Shown here: piece by piece, positions 14,519-33,173 of the stretch
Layout: every line of letters begins with the position of its first letter
How positions within the stretch are numbered: the first letter of the stretch is position 1
NCBI GenBank assembly: GCA_964291545.2
Contig: OZ219860.1
Coordinates: 745,786 to 809,785, forward strand
From: Dehalococcoidia bacterium
GTDB taxonomy: Bacteria; Chloroflexota; Dehalococcoidia; Lucifugimonadales; UBA3495
DNA length: 64,000 bases
Reading direction: 5' to 3'
Program-made: the position numbers and the translations under genes
The notes under the pieces: generated by a model
The model's input: only the letters and a program-made list of their open reading frames with translations
What the model was told of the DNA's origin: nothing
Database searches by the model: none

Positions 14519-15865
<1,347 letters not shown>

Positions 15866-19172: not shown

Positions 19173-19287
19173 CCCCACGAGCCGCCCGGAGCCCCCACCC
19201 CCTGCGCCGCCGCACGAAGCCTACTTCACGGCCTAGGGCTAGTCCGTCCGTCGACCGCACGAAGACCATAGCCCGGCCAGAGAACTA

Positions 19288-19378
19288 GGCCGTCCGTTCG
19301 TCCTGAGGTTCTCGAAGGGGGAACCGACAGCCGGGGTCTGTCCTGAGGTTCTCTAAGAGGCTCTCGAAGGGTGAACTA
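19288..19378. repeat. hairpin-type intergenic repeat modules (one complete, one partial)
   Basis: ggccgtccgttcgtcctgaggttctcgaagggggaaccgacagccgg, followed by a degenerate tcctgaggttctc...ctctcgaagggtgaac. Confidence 0.75.
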
Positions 19379-19845: not shown

Positions 19846-20892
19846 TGTATGTGTTAGCTAATTCATTGACAGATTTTGCAAGGTTTGCAGTGGAGTGTTG
19901 CCTCCAAGGCCCTGGTGGGGTCTCTCGGTGTTGTAGTAGAGGAGGTACTGCATCAGTTCATCCCTCAGCTCGTCCAAGGACTCGAAGGTGGTCCCTTCCA
20001 AGAGGTCCTCATTGAGGGTTCTCCAGAAGCGCTCGACCTTGCCATTGGTCTGGGGTCTGTAGGGCCTGGTGTAGCGGTGCTTGATCCCCAGCTCCATTAG
20101 CATCCTCTCGAAGGGATGCTGGTCCTTACTCTTGTGGGTGGCCACCTCAGGCCCATTGTCGGTGAGTATGGCCTCAAAGCGCACCCCGTACTCGGCATTC
20201 AGCAAGTTGATGCTCTTTAGGGCGGCGAACATCACGCTCAGGCTCTTTATGTCCTCCACCACCTCCGCCCAGGCCAGGCGGGTGCAGGAGTCCAGCAGAG
20301 ACACCAGGTAGTAGCGCTGTCTGGCGCCCAGGATCAGGTCCTTGCTCAGATGGTGGCAGTCCAGATGCCCCAACTCTCCTGCCCTGGCCTTGATGATCCT
20401 TCTTTTGGACTGTTCCATGGGTTTGGTCAACTTGTTCAGGTTATGACGCCGGCTGATAGCGTAGATGGTGGATGGCGCAGGAGTGCGGGACTTCAGTACC
20501 GGCTGGAGTATCGCATATATCTCATACCGATTTATACCTTTACGCCTTAGCTCCAGCACCTTCTCCTCTATGAAAGGCAGCGTGCGGCGGCTCTTCCACC
20601 TGGGGCCGCGCTTGAGAGGCAGTAGAGCTAGGTCACTACCATCTTGCTTGTAGCGGTTGTAATACTTGGCAAAGGTCTGTCGGTTGGTGCCGTGGAAGTT
20701 GTAGAAGTCCTGGACGAAGCGGAACCTGGGGTGTTCCTTCGCCTTGACTTGTTGGTACTCCCGGATGAGAAACCGCCACTTCTGGACATAGTTTCGTTCC
20801 ACTGTACGGTCATTGCTGTTGTTACGCATCCTCGCCTCCAGAATAGCTATTTGTCCCATGCTATTCTGTCAACGAATTATCTGACATCTACA
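19846..20892 (-). mobile_element. IS481-family insertion sequence, copy A (1047 bp), flanked by ATTCC duplication
   Basis: The ends are tgtatgtgttagctaattcattgacag (19846...) and ctgtcaacgaattatctgacatctaca (...20892), forming imperfect inverted repeats of about 27 bp. The flanks read gtcATTCC|IS|ATTCCgagcg. Confidence 0.85.
19858..20859 (-). CDS. IS481-family transposase (rve integrase-core DDE)
   Basis: N-terminal HTH region. DDE contexts are GHLDCHHL, ILTDNGPE and TNGKVERFWRTL. It differs from the 31804..32805 copy by one residue. Confidence 0.9.
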   Translation of the reverse strand: MGQIAILEARMRNNSNDRTVERNYVQKWRFLIREYQQVKAKEHPRFRFVQDFYNFHGTNRQTFAKYYNRYKQDGSDLALLPLKRGPRWKSRRTLPFIEEKVLELRRKGINRYEIYAILQPVLKSRTPAPSTIYAISRRHNLNKLTKPMEQSKRRIIKARAGELGHLDCHHLSKDLILGARQRYYLVSLLDSCTRLAWAEVVEDIKSLSVMFAALKSINLLNAEYGVRFEAILTDNGPEVATHKSKDQHPFERMLMELGIKHRYTRPYRPQTNGKVERFWRTLNEDLLEGTTFESLDELRDELMQYLLYYNTERPHQGLGGNTPLQTLQNLSMN

Positions 20893-21001: not shown

Positions 21002-23254
21002 GTGCACACCAGCCACGTCCGTGTTAAACTGCCCTATAGCCGCCGCCGGGAGACCGGGTTGCTACGCATCTACAACACCCTCACCAAGTCCACTGAACAG
21101 GTACAACCCATCCAGCCTGGCCTGGTCCGCATGTACACCTGCGGGCCCACTGTTTACCGTGACGCCCACCTGGGCAACCTCCGGACCTACCTCCTCGCCG
21201 ACTGGATTCGCCGCGTCCTCCAGGCAGACGGCCTCGATGTCCGCCACGTCAAGAACATCACCGACGTCGGCCACATGCGCCAGGACCTGGTCGAGTCCGG
21301 CGGTGACAAGGTAGTTCTCGCCGCCCTTGAAGAGGGCCGCCCCGTATCCGAACTCACCCGGTACTATGCCGACCGCTTCCATAACGACGAGGCCCGCCTC
21401 AACATCCTCCCCGCCCACGAATTCCCTTGGGCCACCCAGCACGTTCCGGAGATGCTCTCCATCGTCGCCAAGTTGCTCGACGAAGGCCGCGCCTACCAGG
21501 CCGGTGGCAACGTCTACTTCGACGTAAGCTCCTTCCCAGACTACGGCAAGCTCTCCCGCAATACCGGCGCCGACCTCCTTGAAGGAGTTCGCGCCGAGGC
21601 CGACCCCCTCAAGCGCGACCCTCGCGATTTCACCCTCTGGAAGGCGGCCGAGCCCGGCCGCGACCTCAAGTGGGACAGTCCCTGGGGCCCGGGCTTCCCC
21701 GGCTGGCACATCGAATGTTCCGCTATGGCTGAGAAATACCTCGGTACGCGCTTCGATATCCACACCGGAGGCGTCGACAACATCTTTCCCCACCATGAAG
21801 ACGAAATCGCCCAGAGTGAGGCCGCCTTCGGCTCTTCCCACGTCAATTATTGGGTCCACGCCCAGCACCTCCTCGTCGACGGCGCCAAGATGGCCAAGTC
21901 CTCCGGAAACGTCTTCCTTATAGACGACCTCGTCTCACGCGGCTTCGACCCCCTTGCTTTCCGCTACCTCTGCCTCACCGTCCGGTACCGCCACCGCATG
22001 AACTTCACCTTCAACGCCCTCCGCTCTGCCGAAAAGGCCCTCACCGGCCTTCGCCACCGTATCTGGCTGTGGAAGCGCCTGCCTACCATCTCCTCGCTTC
22101 CTGCGGAGACCCAACAGTGGTGCGACGCCTTTTGGTCGGCCGCCCACGACGACCTCAACCTCCCCCGCGCCCTCGCCATCGCCTGGCGGCTCTGTGCCTC
22201 GCAACTGCCCGGCCAGGCCAAGCTTTCCCTCCTCCTCGACTTCGACCGCGCCTTTGGTTTGCAGCTCGACTCCGTACCCGCGGCTTACGACCTCCCCCAA
22301 CCCGTCGCCTCCGCAGTCCAGCGCCGCACCGGCCTCCGCTGCCAGGCCCAGTATCCGGCCGCCGACCAAATCCGGTCCGACCTCGACTCTCGGGGCTATG
22401 TCCTCGAGGACACCCCCTCCGATAGCCAGGTCCGCCCCAAGACCGCATTCGAACGCACCCGCCAACCCTGGCCCACCTTCTCCTCCTCTCGCGAAGTCCC
22501 GTCCTTCCTCCACCTACCTTCCCAATACGACTTCACCTTCATCCTCAACGCCCACGGCTACGTCGACGACCTGGACCGGTGCCTGAACAGCGTCGTCAAC
22601 CACTCCCATGGCCACTCTGTGGAGATCATCGCCGTTGATAACGGCAACGGCGCCGGCCAGTGGCTTGAAGACTTCCGCCTTTCCCACCCGTCCATGCGGG
22701 TCATCCACTGCGACCACAACCTAGGCGACGCCGCCGGTAAGAACATCGGCCTAAAGCAAAGCCTCGGCCACCGCATCGTCATCCTCGACAGTTCAATAGA
22801 AGTAGTCGACGCCATTCTCGATCCTATCGCCCGGCAACTGGCCGACCCATCCGTTGGAATATTCGGCCCCTACGGCCTCACCACCAACGACCTCCAGCAC
22901 TTCCACGAAGAGGTCGCCAAGGGCGATGCCGACGCCATGCAGGCCTATTGCATGGCCTTCCGCCGGGAATGTGTCAACACCGTCGGCCTCATGCGCGAAG
23001 CCTTCCGTTTCTACCGCAACCTCGACATCGACTACTCATTCCAATTCAAGGACAAAGGCTTCCGCATCGTAGCCGACGACACCCTGCCCTTGGTCCGCCA
23101 CCAGCACCGCCAGTGGGCCGAATTGGAAGAAAATCAGCGCGACGAACTTAGCCGCAAGAACTTCGGCCGCTTCCTCAAGCGCTGGGGCAACCGTCCCGAT
23201 CTCCTCCTCGCCTCTACCGCCCAAGGCGTAGAAAACGAGCACTCCCACCACTAA
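21002..23254 (+). CDS. cysS: cysteine--tRNA ligase fused to a C-terminal GT2-like (GT-A fold) glycosyltransferase domain
   Basis: CysRS region, aa about 20-478: YTCGPTVY, HLGN (HIGH), WHIECS, HHEDE, KMAKS (KMSKS), DDLNLPRAL, and ADQIRSDLDSRGYVLED. GT2-like region, aa about 509-705 (nt about 22526-23120): FTFILNAHGY, EIIAVDNGNG, RIVILDSS. A TTG at 21059 (LLRIYNTL) is an alternative start. Confidence 0.85.
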   Translation: MHTSHVRVKLPYSRRRETGLLRIYNTLTKSTEQVQPIQPGLVRMYTCGPTVYRDAHLGNLRTYLLADWIRRVLQADGLDVRHVKNITDVGHMRQDLVESGGDKVVLAALEEGRPVSELTRYYADRFHNDEARLNILPAHEFPWATQHVPEMLSIVAKLLDEGRAYQAGGNVYFDVSSFPDYGKLSRNTGADLLEGVRAEADPLKRDPRDFTLWKAAEPGRDLKWDSPWGPGFPGWHIECSAMAEKYLGTRFDIHTGGVDNIFPHHEDEIAQSEAAFGSSHVNYWVHAQHLLVDGAKMAKSSGNVFLIDDLVSRGFDPLAFRYLCLTVRYRHRMNFTFNALRSAEKALTGLRHRIWLWKRLPTISSLPAETQQWCDAFWSAAHDDLNLPRALAIAWRLCASQLPGQAKLSLLLDFDRAFGLQLDSVPAAYDLPQPVASAVQRRTGLRCQAQYPAADQIRSDLDSRGYVLEDTPSDSQVRPKTAFERTRQPWPTFSSSREVPSFLHLPSQYDFTFILNAHGYVDDLDRCLNSVVNHSHGHSVEIIAVDNGNGAGQWLEDFRLSHPSMRVIHCDHNLGDAAGKNIGLKQSLGHRIVILDSSIEVVDAILDPIARQLADPSVGIFGPYGLTTNDLQHFHEEVAKGDADAMQAYCMAFRRECVNTVGLMREAFRFYRNLDIDYSFQFKDKGFRIVADDTLPLVRHQHRQWAELEENQRDELSRKNFGRFLKRWGNRPDLLLASTAQGVENEHSHH

Positions 23255-23294: not shown

Positions 23295-23420
23295 GTCATT
23301 CCGAGCGCAGCGCAGCTGAGAGAGGAATCTAAAACTCCCCCGCACCCAGGCTATCCGTTCGTCCAGAGCCTGTCCTGAGGTCCTCGAAGGGCGAAATCGA
23401 AGGGCGCACGGACAGCCGCC
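23295..23420. repeat. intergenic repeat modules (GTCATTCC module 23295-23338 plus a long hairpin module)
   Basis: gtcattccgagcgcagcgcagctgagagaggaatctaaaactcc, then ggctatccgttcgtccagagcctgtcctgaggtcctcgaagggcgaaatcgaagggcgcacggacagcc. Confidence 0.8.
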
Positions 23421-23609
23421 GTTGCGCAAATGCCCTAATCCCAACCAAACCGTCAAAAATCAATATCCCACGCATCATTCCGACATTACTATCTTTGTCG
23501 CCTATTTGTGAACAATACTTGCACATATCAACAGAATTGCCATGAATTAACATCAATCATCCCCGGTGATACGCCCGATTTACATTACATAATCTATCTC
23601 CAAATTCTC

Positions 23610-23695: not shown

Positions 23696-24676
23696 ATGGA
23701 GGAACCTGCCCAGAGGCTCTTGTCCGGCGACCGCCGGACCCTTTCCAGGCTCATCACCCTCCTGGAAAAAGGAGACCTCCAAGCAGCGGGAATTCTTGAA
23801 TCGATAGACCCTTACACCGGTCGGGCCTGCGTAATCGGCATCACTGGACCTCCCGGCGCTGGAAAGAGCACCATCGTTGACCGGCTTACCGAGCGCCTGC
23901 GCTCCCAGGGGTTGACCGCCGCCGTGATCGGCGTTGATCCAACCAGCCCGCACAGTGGCGGGGCGTTCCTCGGCGACCGCATTCGGATGCAGCGTCATTA
24001 TTTGGATTCGGGGGTATTCATTCGCAGTGTTGCTTCCAGAGGACAGGCAGGCGGACTCCCCAGGATCGTCAAAGCCGTCATACGTCTCCTCGACGCCTCC
24101 GGATCCGACGTCATCCTTGTCGAGACCGTGGGCGTCGGCCAGTCAGAGTTGGCTATCAGCGACGTTGCCGATACCGTCTTGCTCGCCCTCATGCCAGAGT
24201 CCGGCGACGCTATCCAGGCCCTCAAAGCCGGCGTCATGGAAATCGCCGACATATTCGTGGTCAACAAAGCCGATCTGGATGGCGCCGCACAGATGGCGGC
24301 TGCCGTCACCAGCTCACTTCAATTGGCTCCGGATCAGCCCGACTGGGTCCCGCCAGTGCTGCTCACCGCAGCCCATTCCGGCCAGGGTATCCACGATCTT
24401 TGGGACAAAATCCAAGAGCACCGCAACTACCTGACTTCGACGGCGCTCCTGCCCCAGCGTCGCGCTCAGCGGCGGCAAAGGGAATTTCTTGAGACGGTGG
24501 AGGATGAAATGGCTCGCCGCTTTAGGGAACACGTCAAAAGCGACCCCGCCCTCATTACTGCCTTGACCGAGGTGGCCGAGGGCAAAGCCGAGCCCTTTTC
24601 CGCCGCACTCCGGTTGCTCGACTCCCGCCGTACTCAGGCGGACTGGATCACGCCCCTCTCTGCCGGGCCCGACTAG
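23696..24676 (+). CDS. meaB: methylmalonyl-CoA mutase-associated G-protein chaperone (MeaB/ArgK family GTPase)
   Basis: GDRRTLSRLITLLE N-terminus, P-loop GITGPPGAGKST, VETVGVGQSE, and VVNKADL (NKxD). Confidence 0.88.
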   Translation: MEEPAQRLLSGDRRTLSRLITLLEKGDLQAAGILESIDPYTGRACVIGITGPPGAGKSTIVDRLTERLRSQGLTAAVIGVDPTSPHSGGAFLGDRIRMQRHYLDSGVFIRSVASRGQAGGLPRIVKAVIRLLDASGSDVILVETVGVGQSELAISDVADTVLLALMPESGDAIQALKAGVMEIADIFVVNKADLDGAAQMAAAVTSSLQLAPDQPDWVPPVLLTAAHSGQGIHDLWDKIQEHRNYLTSTALLPQRRAQRRQREFLETVEDEMARRFREHVKSDPALITALTEVAEGKAEPFSAALRLLDSRRTQADWITPLSAGPD

Positions 24677-26156: not shown

Positions 26157-26269
26157 CGACCCCCGCACCAAACCCGTTGCCCTGCCTAGACTATGCTGAC
26201 CGTTCGCCCTGACCCCGTCCTGAGGCTCTCGAAGGAGGAGCGGACAGCCGGCATGCATGCGGGAGAACA

Positions 26270-26700
26270 ACAGCCGCCCCCGAGCCGGAATCCAGAGCGC
26301 CTGCCCACCAACATCGTGGCATCCCCTGCGGCGCCCCCCCCCAACCGTTCGTTCCCCCGCCCTCACCGCATCCGCCAGGACCCAGCTAGGCTGACCGTTC
26401 GTCCAGAGCCTGTCCTGAGGCTCTCGAAGGGGGAAATCGAAGGGCGCACGGTCAGCCGCCGCCTGTCCTCAGCCAGTCGGAGGTCTATCCAGCCCCCAAC
26501 CCGTCATTCCGGCCCCCGAGCCGGAATCCAGAGCGCCTGCCCACCAACATCGTAGCATTCCCTCCGGCGGTGCCCCAACCGTTCGTCCCCCGCCGTCACC
26601 GCGTCCGCTAGTACCCAGCTAGGCTGTCCGTTCGTCCAGAGCCTGTCCTGAGGCTCTCGAAGGGGGAAATCGAAGGACGCGCGGTCAGCCGCCGTTGCGC
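26270..26700. repeat. tandem duplication, about 236-bp unit x about 2 (GTCATTCCGGC module plus long hairpin module)
   Basis: cgagccggaatccagagcgcctgcccaccaacatcgt starts at 26281 and 26517. Each is followed by ggctg(a/t)ccgttcgtccagagcctgtcctgaggctctcgaagggggaaatcgaagg.cgc.cggtcagcc. Confidence 0.85.
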
Positions 26701-29068: not shown

Positions 29069-29154
29069 AAAACCCCGAACGCGCCATTCATCCTCATAAC
29101 CCTATGGTATCACCCCGTCCACCGAGCAACCCGTGCTTCCCCTGCGCCCAGCGC

Positions 29155-29330
29155 TCCCAACCCGTCATTCCGGCCCCCGAGCCGGAATCCAGAGCGCCTG
29201 TCCACCAACATCGTGGCCCTCCCGCCAGCACCTCGCCCGCTCCCGCATCAAACACATATCCTAACCTGGGCCTCGGCTGTCCGTTCGTACTGAGGTTCTC
29301 GAAGGGGGAACGGACAGCCGCCGCTCTGCT
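29155..29330. repeat. intergenic repeat unit (GTCATTCCGGC module plus hairpin module)
   Basis: gtcattccggcccccgagccggaatccagagcgcctgtccaccaacatcgtggc ... ggctgtccgttcgtactgaggttctcgaagggggaacggacagcc. Confidence 0.85.
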
Positions 29331-30589: not shown

Positions 30590-30800
30590 CAACGAGGTAC
30601 CCGTTCGTCCCGAGCCTGTCCTGAGGCTCTCAAAGGGCCCGCCCCGAGGCTCTCGAAGGGCGCGCGGACAGCCGGCGGCACCCGCCGCGGTGACCCAGCG
30701 CCATCGTCACCAACCCGTCATTCCGGCCCCCGAGCCGGAATCCAGAGCGCCTGTCCACCAACATCGTGGCCTTCCCGCCAACACCCCGCCCCCTCATCCT
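30590..30800. repeat. intergenic repeat unit (hairpin-type module followed by GTCATTCCGGC module)
   Basis: cgttcgtcccgagcctgtcctgaggctctcaaaggg...ctctcgaagggcgcgcggacagcc, then gtcattccggcccccgagccggaatccagagcgcctgtccaccaacatcgtggc. Confidence 0.8.
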
Positions 30801-31770: not shown

Positions 31771-32817
31771 TGTAGATGTCAGATAATTCGTTGACAGAAT
31801 AGCATGGGACAAATAGCTATTCTGGAGGCGAGGATGCGTAACAACAGCAATGACCGTACAGTGGAACGAAACTATGTCCAGAAGTGGCGGTTTCTCATCC
31901 GGGAGTACCAACAAGTCAAGGCGAAGGAACACCCCAGGTTCCGCTTCGTCCAGGACTTCTACAACTTCCACGGCACCAACCGACAGACCTTTGCCAAGTA
32001 TTACAACCGCTACAAGCAAGATGGTAGTGACCTAGCTCTACTGCCTCTCAAGCGCGGCCCCAGGTGGAAGAGCCGCCGCACGCTGCCTTTCATAGAGGAG
32101 AAGGTGCTGGAGCTAAGGCGTAAAGGTATAAATCGGTATGAGATATATGCGATACTCCAGCCGGTACTGAAGTCCCGCACTCCTGCGCCATCCACCATCT
32201 ACGCTATCAGCCGGCGTCATAACCTGAACAAGTTGACCAAACCCATGGAACAGTCCAAAAGAAGGATCATCAAGGCCAGGGCAGGAGAGTTGGGGCATCT
32301 GGACTGCCACCATCTGAGCAAGGACCTGATCCTGGGCGCCAGACAGCGCTACTACCTGGTGTCTCTGCTGGACTCCTGCACCCGCCTGGCCTGGGCGGAG
32401 GTGGTGGAGGACATAAAGAGCCTGAGCGTGATGTTCGCCGCCCTAAAGAGCATCAACTTGCTGAATGCCGAGTACGGGGTGCGCTTTGAGGCCATACTCA
32501 CCGACAATGGCCCTGAGGTGGCCACCCACAAGAGTAAGGAGCAGCATCCCTTCGAGAGGATGCTAATGGAGCTGGGGATCAAGCACCGCTACACCAGGCC
32601 CTACAGACCCCAGACCAATGGCAAGGTCGAGCGCTTCTGGCGGACCCTCAACGAAGACCTCTTGGAAGGGACCACCTTCGAGTCCTTGGACGAGCTGAGG
32701 GATGAACTGATGCAGTACCTCCTCTACTACAACACCGAGAGACCCCACCAGGGCCTTGGAGGCAACACTCCACTGCAAACCTTGCAAAATCTGTCAATGA
32801 ATTAGCTAACACATACA
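31771..32817 (+). mobile_element. IS481-family insertion sequence, copy B (1047 bp), flanked by ATTCC duplication
   Basis: The ends are tgtagatgtcagataattcgttgacag ... ctgtcaatgaattagctaacacataca. The flanks read gtcATTCC|IS|ATTCCgagcgaagccgaggaatc. Confidence 0.85.
31804..32805 (+). CDS. IS481-family transposase (rve integrase-core DDE)
   Basis: The 333-aa product is identical to the 19858..20859 product except for one D/E residue. Confidence 0.9.
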   Translation: MGQIAILEARMRNNSNDRTVERNYVQKWRFLIREYQQVKAKEHPRFRFVQDFYNFHGTNRQTFAKYYNRYKQDGSDLALLPLKRGPRWKSRRTLPFIEEKVLELRRKGINRYEIYAILQPVLKSRTPAPSTIYAISRRHNLNKLTKPMEQSKRRIIKARAGELGHLDCHHLSKDLILGARQRYYLVSLLDSCTRLAWAEVVEDIKSLSVMFAALKSINLLNAEYGVRFEAILTDNGPEVATHKSKEQHPFERMLMELGIKHRYTRPYRPQTNGKVERFWRTLNEDLLEGTTFESLDELRDELMQYLLYYNTERPHQGLGGNTPLQTLQNLSMN

Positions 32818-33173
32818 ATTCCGAGCGAAGCCGAGGAATCTCACATCCCTGGCTGCCAGCCAGCCGATGGGCGCGTTTGACCCCCGCCCCAACTGTCATT
32901 CCGAGCGCAGTCGAGGAATCTTAAAACCCTGGGTGCCAGCCAGCCGATGGACGCGTTTGAACCCCCCGCCCCAACTGTCATTCCGAGCGCAGTCGAAGAA
33001 TCTAAGAACCCTGGGTGCCAGCCGGCCGATGGGCGCGTTTGAACCCCCTGCCCCAACTGTCATTTCGAGCGAAGCCGAGGAGTCTCAAATCCCTGCCTAC
33101 CACCTAGGTCATGCCACCGCGCACACTCCGCACATCCACCCGTCATTCCCGTGCAGACGGGAATCTAAAATCC
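32818..33173. repeat. tandem array of about 80-83-bp units (4-5 copies), each starting with a GTCATTCC module
   Basis: Module starts are at 32815 (virtual, IS-interrupted), 32895, 32977, 33059 and 33142. The first three units share ccctgg.tgccagcc.gccgatgg.cgcgtttga.cccc.gccccaact. Confidence 0.85.

Follow-up and report, generated by a model that had tools for sequence, protein, structure and literature searches.

A cysteinyl-tRNA synthetase paralog joined to a GT-A glycosyltransferase domain in Chloroflexota, and the separate occurrence of its C-terminal module

The stretch of DNA described here, called the window throughout, comprises 64,000 nucleotides of contig OZ219860.1 (positions 745,786 to 809,785) from the Dehalococcoidia bacterium assembly GCA_964291545.2. 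It carries an open reading frame (ORF) that encodes a cysteinyl-tRNA synthetase (CysRS) followed, in the same polypeptide, by a domain of the family 2 glycosyltransferases (GT2) with the GT-A fold. The fusion is a second CysRS gene in this genome. Its anticodon-binding domain (ABD), the linker behind it and the GT2 domain together form a module that is found in many Chloroflexota, both at the end of a synthetase and as a protein of its own. The organization of the gene, the state of its two halves and the distribution of the module are presented below, followed by the functions that these observations make more or less probable.

Architecture of the fusion protein

The reading frame is open without interruption for 750 codons (Table 1). 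The first residues of homologous proteins, MLRIYNTL, align with an in-frame TTG at 21059 that is preceded by GGAG, and the true product is for this reason probably a protein of 731 amino acids starting at that codon. Pfam assigns residues 34-344 to tRNA-synt_1e (E 3.9e-98) and residues 517-611 to Glycos_transf_2 (PF00535; E 5.2e-10, 39.9 bits against a cut-off of 23.3), with weak matches to CysS_C at 430-478 and to Glyco_tranf_2_3 at 524-703. A complete CysRS joined to a C-terminal GT2-like domain had been proposed in the sequence-only reading, and Pfam, NCBIfam, AlphaFold2 and Foldseek agree on this composition, with domain boundaries that match those proposed. All motifs quoted at the time are present in the translation (YTCGPTVY, HLGN, WHIECS, HHEDE, KMAKS, DDLNLPRAL, ADQIRSDLDSRGYVLED, FTFILNAHGY, EIIAVDNGNG, RIVILDSS and LDIDYSF).

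A hidden stop, a frameshift or another sequencing artefact that would make one gene out of two has been ruled out by the single continuous frame and by the occurrence of the same architecture elsewhere. When 5.8 billion proteins were searched, 7992 homologs received a score; the 120 best of these all carry both domains in 709-754 amino acids, and the architecture recurs on many long contigs.

Table 1. Positions of the fusion gene, its domains and motifs, and neighbouring features in the window
Feature	Position	Strand	Remarks
Whole ORF, CysRS-GT2 fusion	21002..23254	+	750 codons from GTG 21002; stop codon 23252-23254
Probable true start codon, TTG (codon 20)	21059..21061	+	Aligns with M1 of homologs of 732-733 amino acids; GGAG about 7 nt upstream
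CysRS catalytic (Rossmann/CP) domain, residues 34-344	21101..22033	+	CGPTVY, GWHIECS and FPHHEDE intact
HLGN and KMAKS motifs	21167-21178 (HLGN); 21887-21901 (KMAKS)	+	Within the CysRS catalytic domain
CysRS helical region, residues 345-429	22034..22288	+	Contains DDLNLPRAL; joins the catalytic domain to the ABD
Anticodon-binding alpha/beta mini-domain (CysS_C), residues 430-478	22289..22435	+	R446, Y451, D455 and R458 equivalent to E. coli contact residues
Conserved linker, residues 479-508	22436..22525	+	...SSSREVPSFL..P; partly ordered in the AlphaFold2 model
GT-A/GT2 domain and basic C-terminal helix, residues 509-735	22526..23206	+	Other conserved motifs: GDAAGKN, FYRNLDID, RHxHRxW
DxD equivalent, D596-S597-S598, plus E600	22787-22801	+	Within the GT-A/GT2 domain
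meaB-like GTPase gene	23696..24676	+	Conserved neighbour on the downstream side in 73 of the clade's 87 loci; gap about 350-840 bp
Insertion sequence (IS) copy, rve-family transposase	19846..20892	-	Left copy of an inverted pair; its end lies 166 bp before the probable TTG start
Second IS copy, rve-family transposase	31771-32817		Inverted relative to 19846-20892

The synthetase half

The N-terminal part matches the NCBIfam cysS equivalog model TIGR00435 from position 1 to 463 of its 466 positions and scores 409.6 bits, above the cut-off of 340. The motifs of the zinc and cysteine site align with those of the E. coli structure 1li5, in which they hold C28, W205, C209, H234 and E238. In this full-length match, in the intact site and in the equivalents of the ABD contact residues, the fusion is the same as the bacterial CysRSs represented by TIGR00435 and by the E. 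coli entries 1U0B and 1LI5. It differs from them in the addition of a GT-A domain of 270 residues behind the ABD and in being a second copy beside a canonical cysS and not the sole synthetase.

The signature motifs of the fusion are HLGN, a variant of HIGH, and KMAKS, a variant of KMSKS. The idea that these mark a decayed synthetase was discarded: the HLGN/HIGN variant and an 11-residue GHxxxD insertion are common to the fusion and the crystallised CysRSs 6ujd and 3sp1, and they are thus features of a CysRS subtype. The nearest subtype is formed by these "HIGN" enzymes (3sp1 is from Borrelia), which share HIGN, KMxKS and the GHxxxD insertion with the fusion. A set of 23 diverse fused proteins, drawn from many families of Chloroflexota, was aligned; one of the proteins (P0187) is unaligned across the ABD. 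In 22 of these 23, all of which cover the motifs, the zinc/cysteine-site motifs, H[ILV]GN and KM[AS]KS are intact. The exception is P0127, a metagenomic protein of 745 amino acids, which has DINQ for HIGN, KMATR for KMAKS and SPDIECL for GWHIECS and has kept the motifs of the ABD and of the GT2 domain; it looks like a natural intermediate on the way to the stand-alone form of the module. Judged from the motifs, the N-terminal synthetase of the fusion is probably catalytically competent and would charge tRNA-Cys.

In E. coli CysRS the anticodon is contacted by R427, W432, D436 and R439 (PDB 1U0B; 2026 paper, PMC13449415). An ungapped alignment places R446, Y451, D455 and R458 of the fusion at these four positions.

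The glycosyltransferase half

AlphaFold2 was run on residues 425-750 with a 37-sequence alignment and gave a model with a mean pLDDT of 92.3 and a pTM of 0.80, in which a helix-hairpin/beta-hairpin mini-domain is followed by the partly ordered linker and a Rossmann-like GT-A core. Foldseek matched this model in the PDB to GT-A glycosyltransferases only (ppGalNAc-Ts, WrtF, TarP and 6p61; E about 1e-12), and the GT-A fold that had been suggested for the C-terminal region is thereby predicted from structure as well. Among solved structures, 6yv7, chondroitin synthase and 6p61 come closest in the sequence-profile comparison. The triplet D596-S597-S598 aligns with their DxD motif, which reads DAD in the GT2 structure 6yv7.

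With family 2 GT-A enzymes such as 6yv7, TarP (6h21), WrtF (9omh) and the ppGalNAc-transferases, the domain shares the fold, the N-terminal nucleotide-binding half, the G..A..N motif and an acidic residue where the DxD would begin. In contrast to these enzymes, it has D-x-S/G followed by Glu in place of the DxD, lacks a membrane or lectin domain, and always follows an anticodon-binding mini-domain of CysRS type with its conserved linker. The C-terminal helix of the domain is basic, amphipathic and conserved. Besides D596 and E600, residues N581, R654/R655, D675 and the H-x-H pair H700/H702 are conserved. A gene for a ManC-like sugar-nucleotide synthase, found immediately before the module in nine loci of one family, also speaks for a glycosyltransferase.

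A second copy, and its distribution

The genome to which the window belongs (2.62 Mb, about 95% complete) contains a canonical stand-alone cysS on another contig (C3:663813-665177), which reaches 492.9 bits with TIGR00435 and has HVGH and KMSKS. Apart from this gene and the fusion, no further member of the CysRS family was found in the genome, giving two in total. The sequence-only reading had also considered a moonlighting function of the housekeeping enzyme and had recommended looking for a second cysS. That gene is there, in this genome and in nearly all relatives, and the fusion is not the housekeeping enzyme. Both copies were found in 31 of 41 genomes of the same order, where the canonical one scores 472-531 bits in ORFs of about 460-620 amino acids and the fusion-sized one 380-425 bits in frames of 735-801 amino acids. 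Six of the 41 have the canonical copy alone and lack the module; two have the fusion alone, both being incomplete genomes, and another two contain fragments. Aragorn predicts 47 tRNAs in the window's genome, among which there is a single tRNA-Cys(GCA), whose discriminator is the usual U73 and whose anticodon loop reads CUGCAAA; a second tRNA-Cys isoacceptor that might serve the paralog was not found among them.

The architecture is widespread. Where names are given to the best 120 of the 7992 homologs, they read "cysteine--tRNA ligase" and point to Chloroflexota, Dehalococcoidia or SAR202. A scan of named genomes, which yielded close relatives from Dehalococcoidia only, found a relative of the C-terminal module in at least 536 species genomes. 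In a spread sample of 401 Chloroflexota genomes the module was detected at E<=1e-40 in 102, about a quarter, and the open frames concerned are roughly half of fusion size and half of stand-alone size. The stand-alone form is also annotated in metagenome-assembled genomes of Ktedonobacteraceae. No paper describing a CysRS-GT2 architecture was found in the searchable literature. The fusion is common in Chloroflexota and not a rarity. A large and strongly conserved family, present in about a quarter of the sampled Chloroflexota, has been annotated merely as "cysteine--tRNA ligase" or "glycosyltransferase".

The ABD-linker-GT2 module as a unit of inheritance

An exhaustive HMMER search with residues 425-750 matched 8649 proteins, 90 of them below 1e-30. 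Many of these 90 are proteins of 300-345 amino acids whose match begins at the CysS_C piece and runs through to the end. Thirty-six such stand-alone proteins were aligned with the fragment from the window; CysS_C (PF23493) is matched by 30 of the 37 sequences and GT2 (PF00535) by 34. A profile built from the stand-alone proteins matches the solved CysRSs 3tqo, 1li5 and 8qhp at their C-termini, from about residue 412 to residue 459. R446 and D455 are invariant, and R458 is conserved at 91-97%, across fused and stand-alone forms with an overall identity of 26-44%.

In a maximum-likelihood tree of the module, with 15 fused and 67 stand-alone rows, the two forms interleave. The well-supported branches force at least four changes of state, and parsimony counts seven. 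The simplest history suggested by the tree is that the CysRS body was lost repeatedly while the ABD and the GT2 domain were kept, since the two forms are interleaved and re-attachment of a synthetase body is unlikely. In one Chloroflexota family (f59), at least ten genomes encode both the fused form and the stand-alone form, and this coexistence suggests that the two forms are not redundant.

Two further arrangements were seen. At one locus (L098, 3950-6086) the fusion is split into a gene for a CysRS catalytic part of 325 amino acids and, after a gap of 74 bp, a gene for an ABD-GT2 protein of 361 amino acids, with MurJ and glutaredoxin genes preceding the pair on the same strand; the split may be real or may stem from an indel error in the assembly. 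Giant proteins of 1100-2300 amino acids (P0180, P0191, P0201, P0213, P0229, P0235 and others) have three to six tandem matches to the GT part alone (query about 85-310) and lack CysS_C.

Possible functions

The reading that we prefer, tentatively and with a probability of about 0.4, is that of an accessory and probably active CysRS that carries a GT-A enzyme functionally tied to docking on the anticodon of tRNA-Cys. The N-terminal 460 residues would be a competent CysRS of the Bacteroidetes/Borrelia-like "HIGN" subtype, working alongside the canonical CysRS; it would bind, and probably charge, the single tRNA-Cys(GCA). The GT-A/GT2 domain would be held by the conserved linker on the anticodon-binding mini-domain, and the ABD-linker-GT2 unit, apparently preserved by selection, could work with or without the synthetase body. 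The glycosyltransferase would then need docking on the tRNA-Cys anticodon, and tRNA-Cys could either accept the sugar, on a nucleoside of the anticodon loop or close to it, or act as a guide or effector that the enzyme cannot do without. If the glycosyltransferase does work on or through tRNA-Cys, it would be the first bacterial sugar-transferring enzyme targeted by an anticodon reader derived from a synthetase, and a new kind of function appended to an aminoacyl-tRNA synthetase (aaRS).

A precedent for joining an aaRS paralog to an enzyme that employs the same tRNA outside translation is mycobacterial LysX, in which LysRS is fused to an MprF-type lysyl-transferase. The partner in LysX is an aminoacyl-tRNA transferase, however, whereas the GT-A domain is attached where the synthetase reads the anticodon, a long way from the aminoacyl end of the tRNA. 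To our knowledge, the eukaryotic enzymes QTGAL (B3GNTL1) and QTMAN are the sole glycosyltransferases that add a sugar to a tRNA anticodon nucleoside. They act on Q34 of tRNA-Tyr and tRNA-Asp and do so without a synthetase-derived anticodon reader; beyond the general fold, no homology of the fusion to them was seen.

Several observations weigh against a link between the glycosyltransferase and tRNA-Cys, and the acidic core and altered DxD among them limit our confidence. Across the family the GT core is acidic, with a median net charge of -9 and a pI of about 5.1, which is unusual for a domain that should embrace RNA. At the position of the DxD the family has the pattern D-x-[SG]-[IV]-E, which retains the first Asp and E600 and lacks an Asp at the third position; the caution voiced earlier about the D-S-S triplet was accurate, and the alteration extends to the whole family. 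The conserved Arg and Asp residues of the 50-residue mini-domain could be partly structural. We know of no glycosylated nucleoside in bacterial tRNA-Cys. Finally, no recurring tRNA-modification gene was seen near the module in the inspected neighbourhoods, which are heterogeneous and contain peptidases, thiol-related genes and envelope genes. A more specific form of the preferred reading makes the ABD-linker-GT2 unit, fused or stand-alone, a tRNA-Cys-specific glycosyltransferase that docks on GCA and places a sugar on an anticodon-loop nucleoside, with the fused form both charging and modifying its tRNA; stated this narrowly, it is distinctly unlikely, and its support is indirect, coming from the ABD and anticodon contacts that the stand-alone forms have kept.

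The domain might instead be an ordinary glycosyltransferase for a protein, lipid or envelope acceptor, with the ABD as a scaffold or a regulatory handle that, for example, couples envelope glycan synthesis to the status of tRNA-Cys or translation, and with tRNA not being a substrate. This is unlikely but is backed by several lines of evidence. The nearest solved sequence relatives are GT2 enzymes of the polyprenyl-phosphate or polysaccharide type (6yv7, chondroitin synthase, DPMS, GtrB and ArnC), and an acidic core with a conserved basic amphipathic C-terminal helix would fit such a role. Envelope genes lie near the module in some lineages: MurJ in three contexts, a ManC-like sugar-nucleotide synthase directly upstream in nine loci of one family, a PMT-family mannosyltransferase, a FemX-like gene, and a rhomboid gene in one large clade. 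An ordinary glycosyltransferase would nevertheless leave the 91-100% conservation of the anticodon-contact residues in stand-alone forms unexplained, and among the close relatives of the family the GT domain is never detached from the ABD. In addition, the protein has no transmembrane segment, and the neighbourhoods are inconsistent across lineages.

A role in the synthesis of a low-molecular-weight thiol or cysteinyl glycoside, in the style of MshA and MshC of mycothiol synthesis, had been put forward in the sequence-only reading. The GT domain would make the sugar acceptor, and the cysteine would be added by the CysRS-like domain, as in MshC, or come from Cys-tRNA-Cys. If such a cysteine-containing glycoside were real, it would point to the chemistry of low-molecular-weight thiols in Chloroflexota, among them the SAR202 group, which is abundant in the sea. 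What stands of the proposal is the presence of thiol-related genes beside the module in several independent lineages. A DinB_2/mycothiol-S-transferase-like gene lies directly upstream in four loci of one family (f70) and again in locus L142; in two of four f70 loci for which the spacing was read, it is 30-35 bp upstream on the same strand. A gamma-glutamyltranspeptidase gene is directly upstream in six loci, and genes for glutaredoxin (at the split locus L098), VKOR, a pyridine-nucleotide-disulfide oxidoreductase, a glyoxalase-like protein and EamA transporters also adjoin the module. These families recur more often than we had expected, but they are broad, and with about a dozen contexts inspected some chance neighbours are to be expected.

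The window's genome itself holds a mycothiol/bacillithiol-like cluster at C2:527314-532130, about 240 kb from the window, in which all genes score below the curated cut-offs. It consists of an Acetyltransf_6 GNAT gene, an MshA-like GT4 gene (348.5 bits to TIGR03449, below the cut-off) that overlaps the GNAT gene by 4 bp, and genes for a membrane protein, an MshD-like double GNAT and a BshB1/MshB-like PIG-L deacetylase. BshC and a separate MshC are absent from this genome, and the fusion is its only CysRS paralog, so that it seemed a candidate for the missing MshC. The co-occurrence of the cluster was followed through the relatives via one gene, the Acetyltransf_6 GNAT. One copy of this gene occurs in each of 39 of 41 relatives, among them all six without the module, and co-occurrence therefore gives the candidate no support.

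MshC and the fusion are alike in being CysRS-derived paralogs beside a housekeeping CysRS, with a cysteine-activation site of the same type (MshC structures 3c8z and 8hfm). MshC no longer has an anticodon-binding domain and is not a tRNA binder, whereas the fusion keeps a full ABD with its anticodon contacts. With the MshC model TIGR03447 it scores 231.1 bits against a cut-off of 485.1, well short of its match as a cysS. A generic GT4 gene beside the fusion in another locus (L130) was considered as MshA or BshA and rejected, as it is not MshA-like. The thiol pathway is doubtful and is ranked as a rival because the Acetyltransf_6 gene also occurs in genomes without the module, because the ABD is kept, and because evolution has discarded the cysteine-activating body instead of the ABD.

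That the GT-like domain is catalytically dead, and a regulatory, oligomerisation or localisation appendage of a condition-specific second CysRS, is improbable: bacteria often retain a second, condition-specific aaRS, the third Asp of the DxD is missing, and in one lineage a FUR-family gene in the same orientation shares 4 bp with the 3' end of the fusion, but the GT-A signature positions listed above are strongly conserved at 26-44% identity, the retained first Asp and downstream Glu imply that D-x-S/G need not mean a loss of activity, and the stand-alone ABD-GT2 proteins persist without a CysRS body to regulate.

Gene neighbourhoods of the module

In the clade of the window the gene order is DUF971 ... 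fusion, gap, meaB, a DUF429-like gene, (hpf) and Band_7/NfeD. The linkage to meaB may merely reflect shared ancestry, as most of the genomes concerned are closely related. Elsewhere the neighbours vary. One family has the ManC-like nucleotidyltransferase, the gamma-glutamyltranspeptidase and an oligoendopeptidase F beside the module, and a Peptidase_S51 gene adjoins the fused genes of three families. Glutaredoxin, FemX-like, GT4, PMT, FUR, EamA and glyoxalase-like genes are neighbours in single cases. A FemAB-type aminoacyl-tRNA transferase was considered as a regular partner and rejected: the FemX-like gene precedes the module in L094 only and is absent in L142, while in L141 the comparison was cut short on the upstream side by the end of the contig. 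The FemX-like protein of L094 is unrelated to the Acetyltransf_6 protein of the window's genome.

Other features of the window

The two IS copies, each of 1047 nt and 99% complementary to one another, bracket a segment of 10,878 bp that holds the fusion, meaB, the DUF429-like gene, hpf and Band_7/NfeD. Horizontal arrival of the fusion on this segment is unlikely. The segment looks native rather than imported, because the same order of genes is found in relatives that lack these IS copies.

Between positions 15000 and 33000 no riboswitch, T-box or other Rfam element was detected near the gene at E<=0.1. Short dispersed intergenic repeats of about 40-110 nt occur at 19285-19360, 23313-23421 (just downstream of the fusion gene), 26197-26694, 29148-29320, 30598-30795 and 32801-33126, the last being an array of four tandem copies with a period of 82 nt. 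Examples of their cores are GTCATTCCGAGCG..CGAGGAATC and CCGTTCGTCC.GAGCCTGTCCTGAGG.TCTCGAAGGG. They look like REP or MITE elements and gave no Rfam match in the interval searched.

Among the tRNAs predicted for the genome is tRNA-SeC(TCA), and this SAR202-type organism therefore probably uses selenocysteine.

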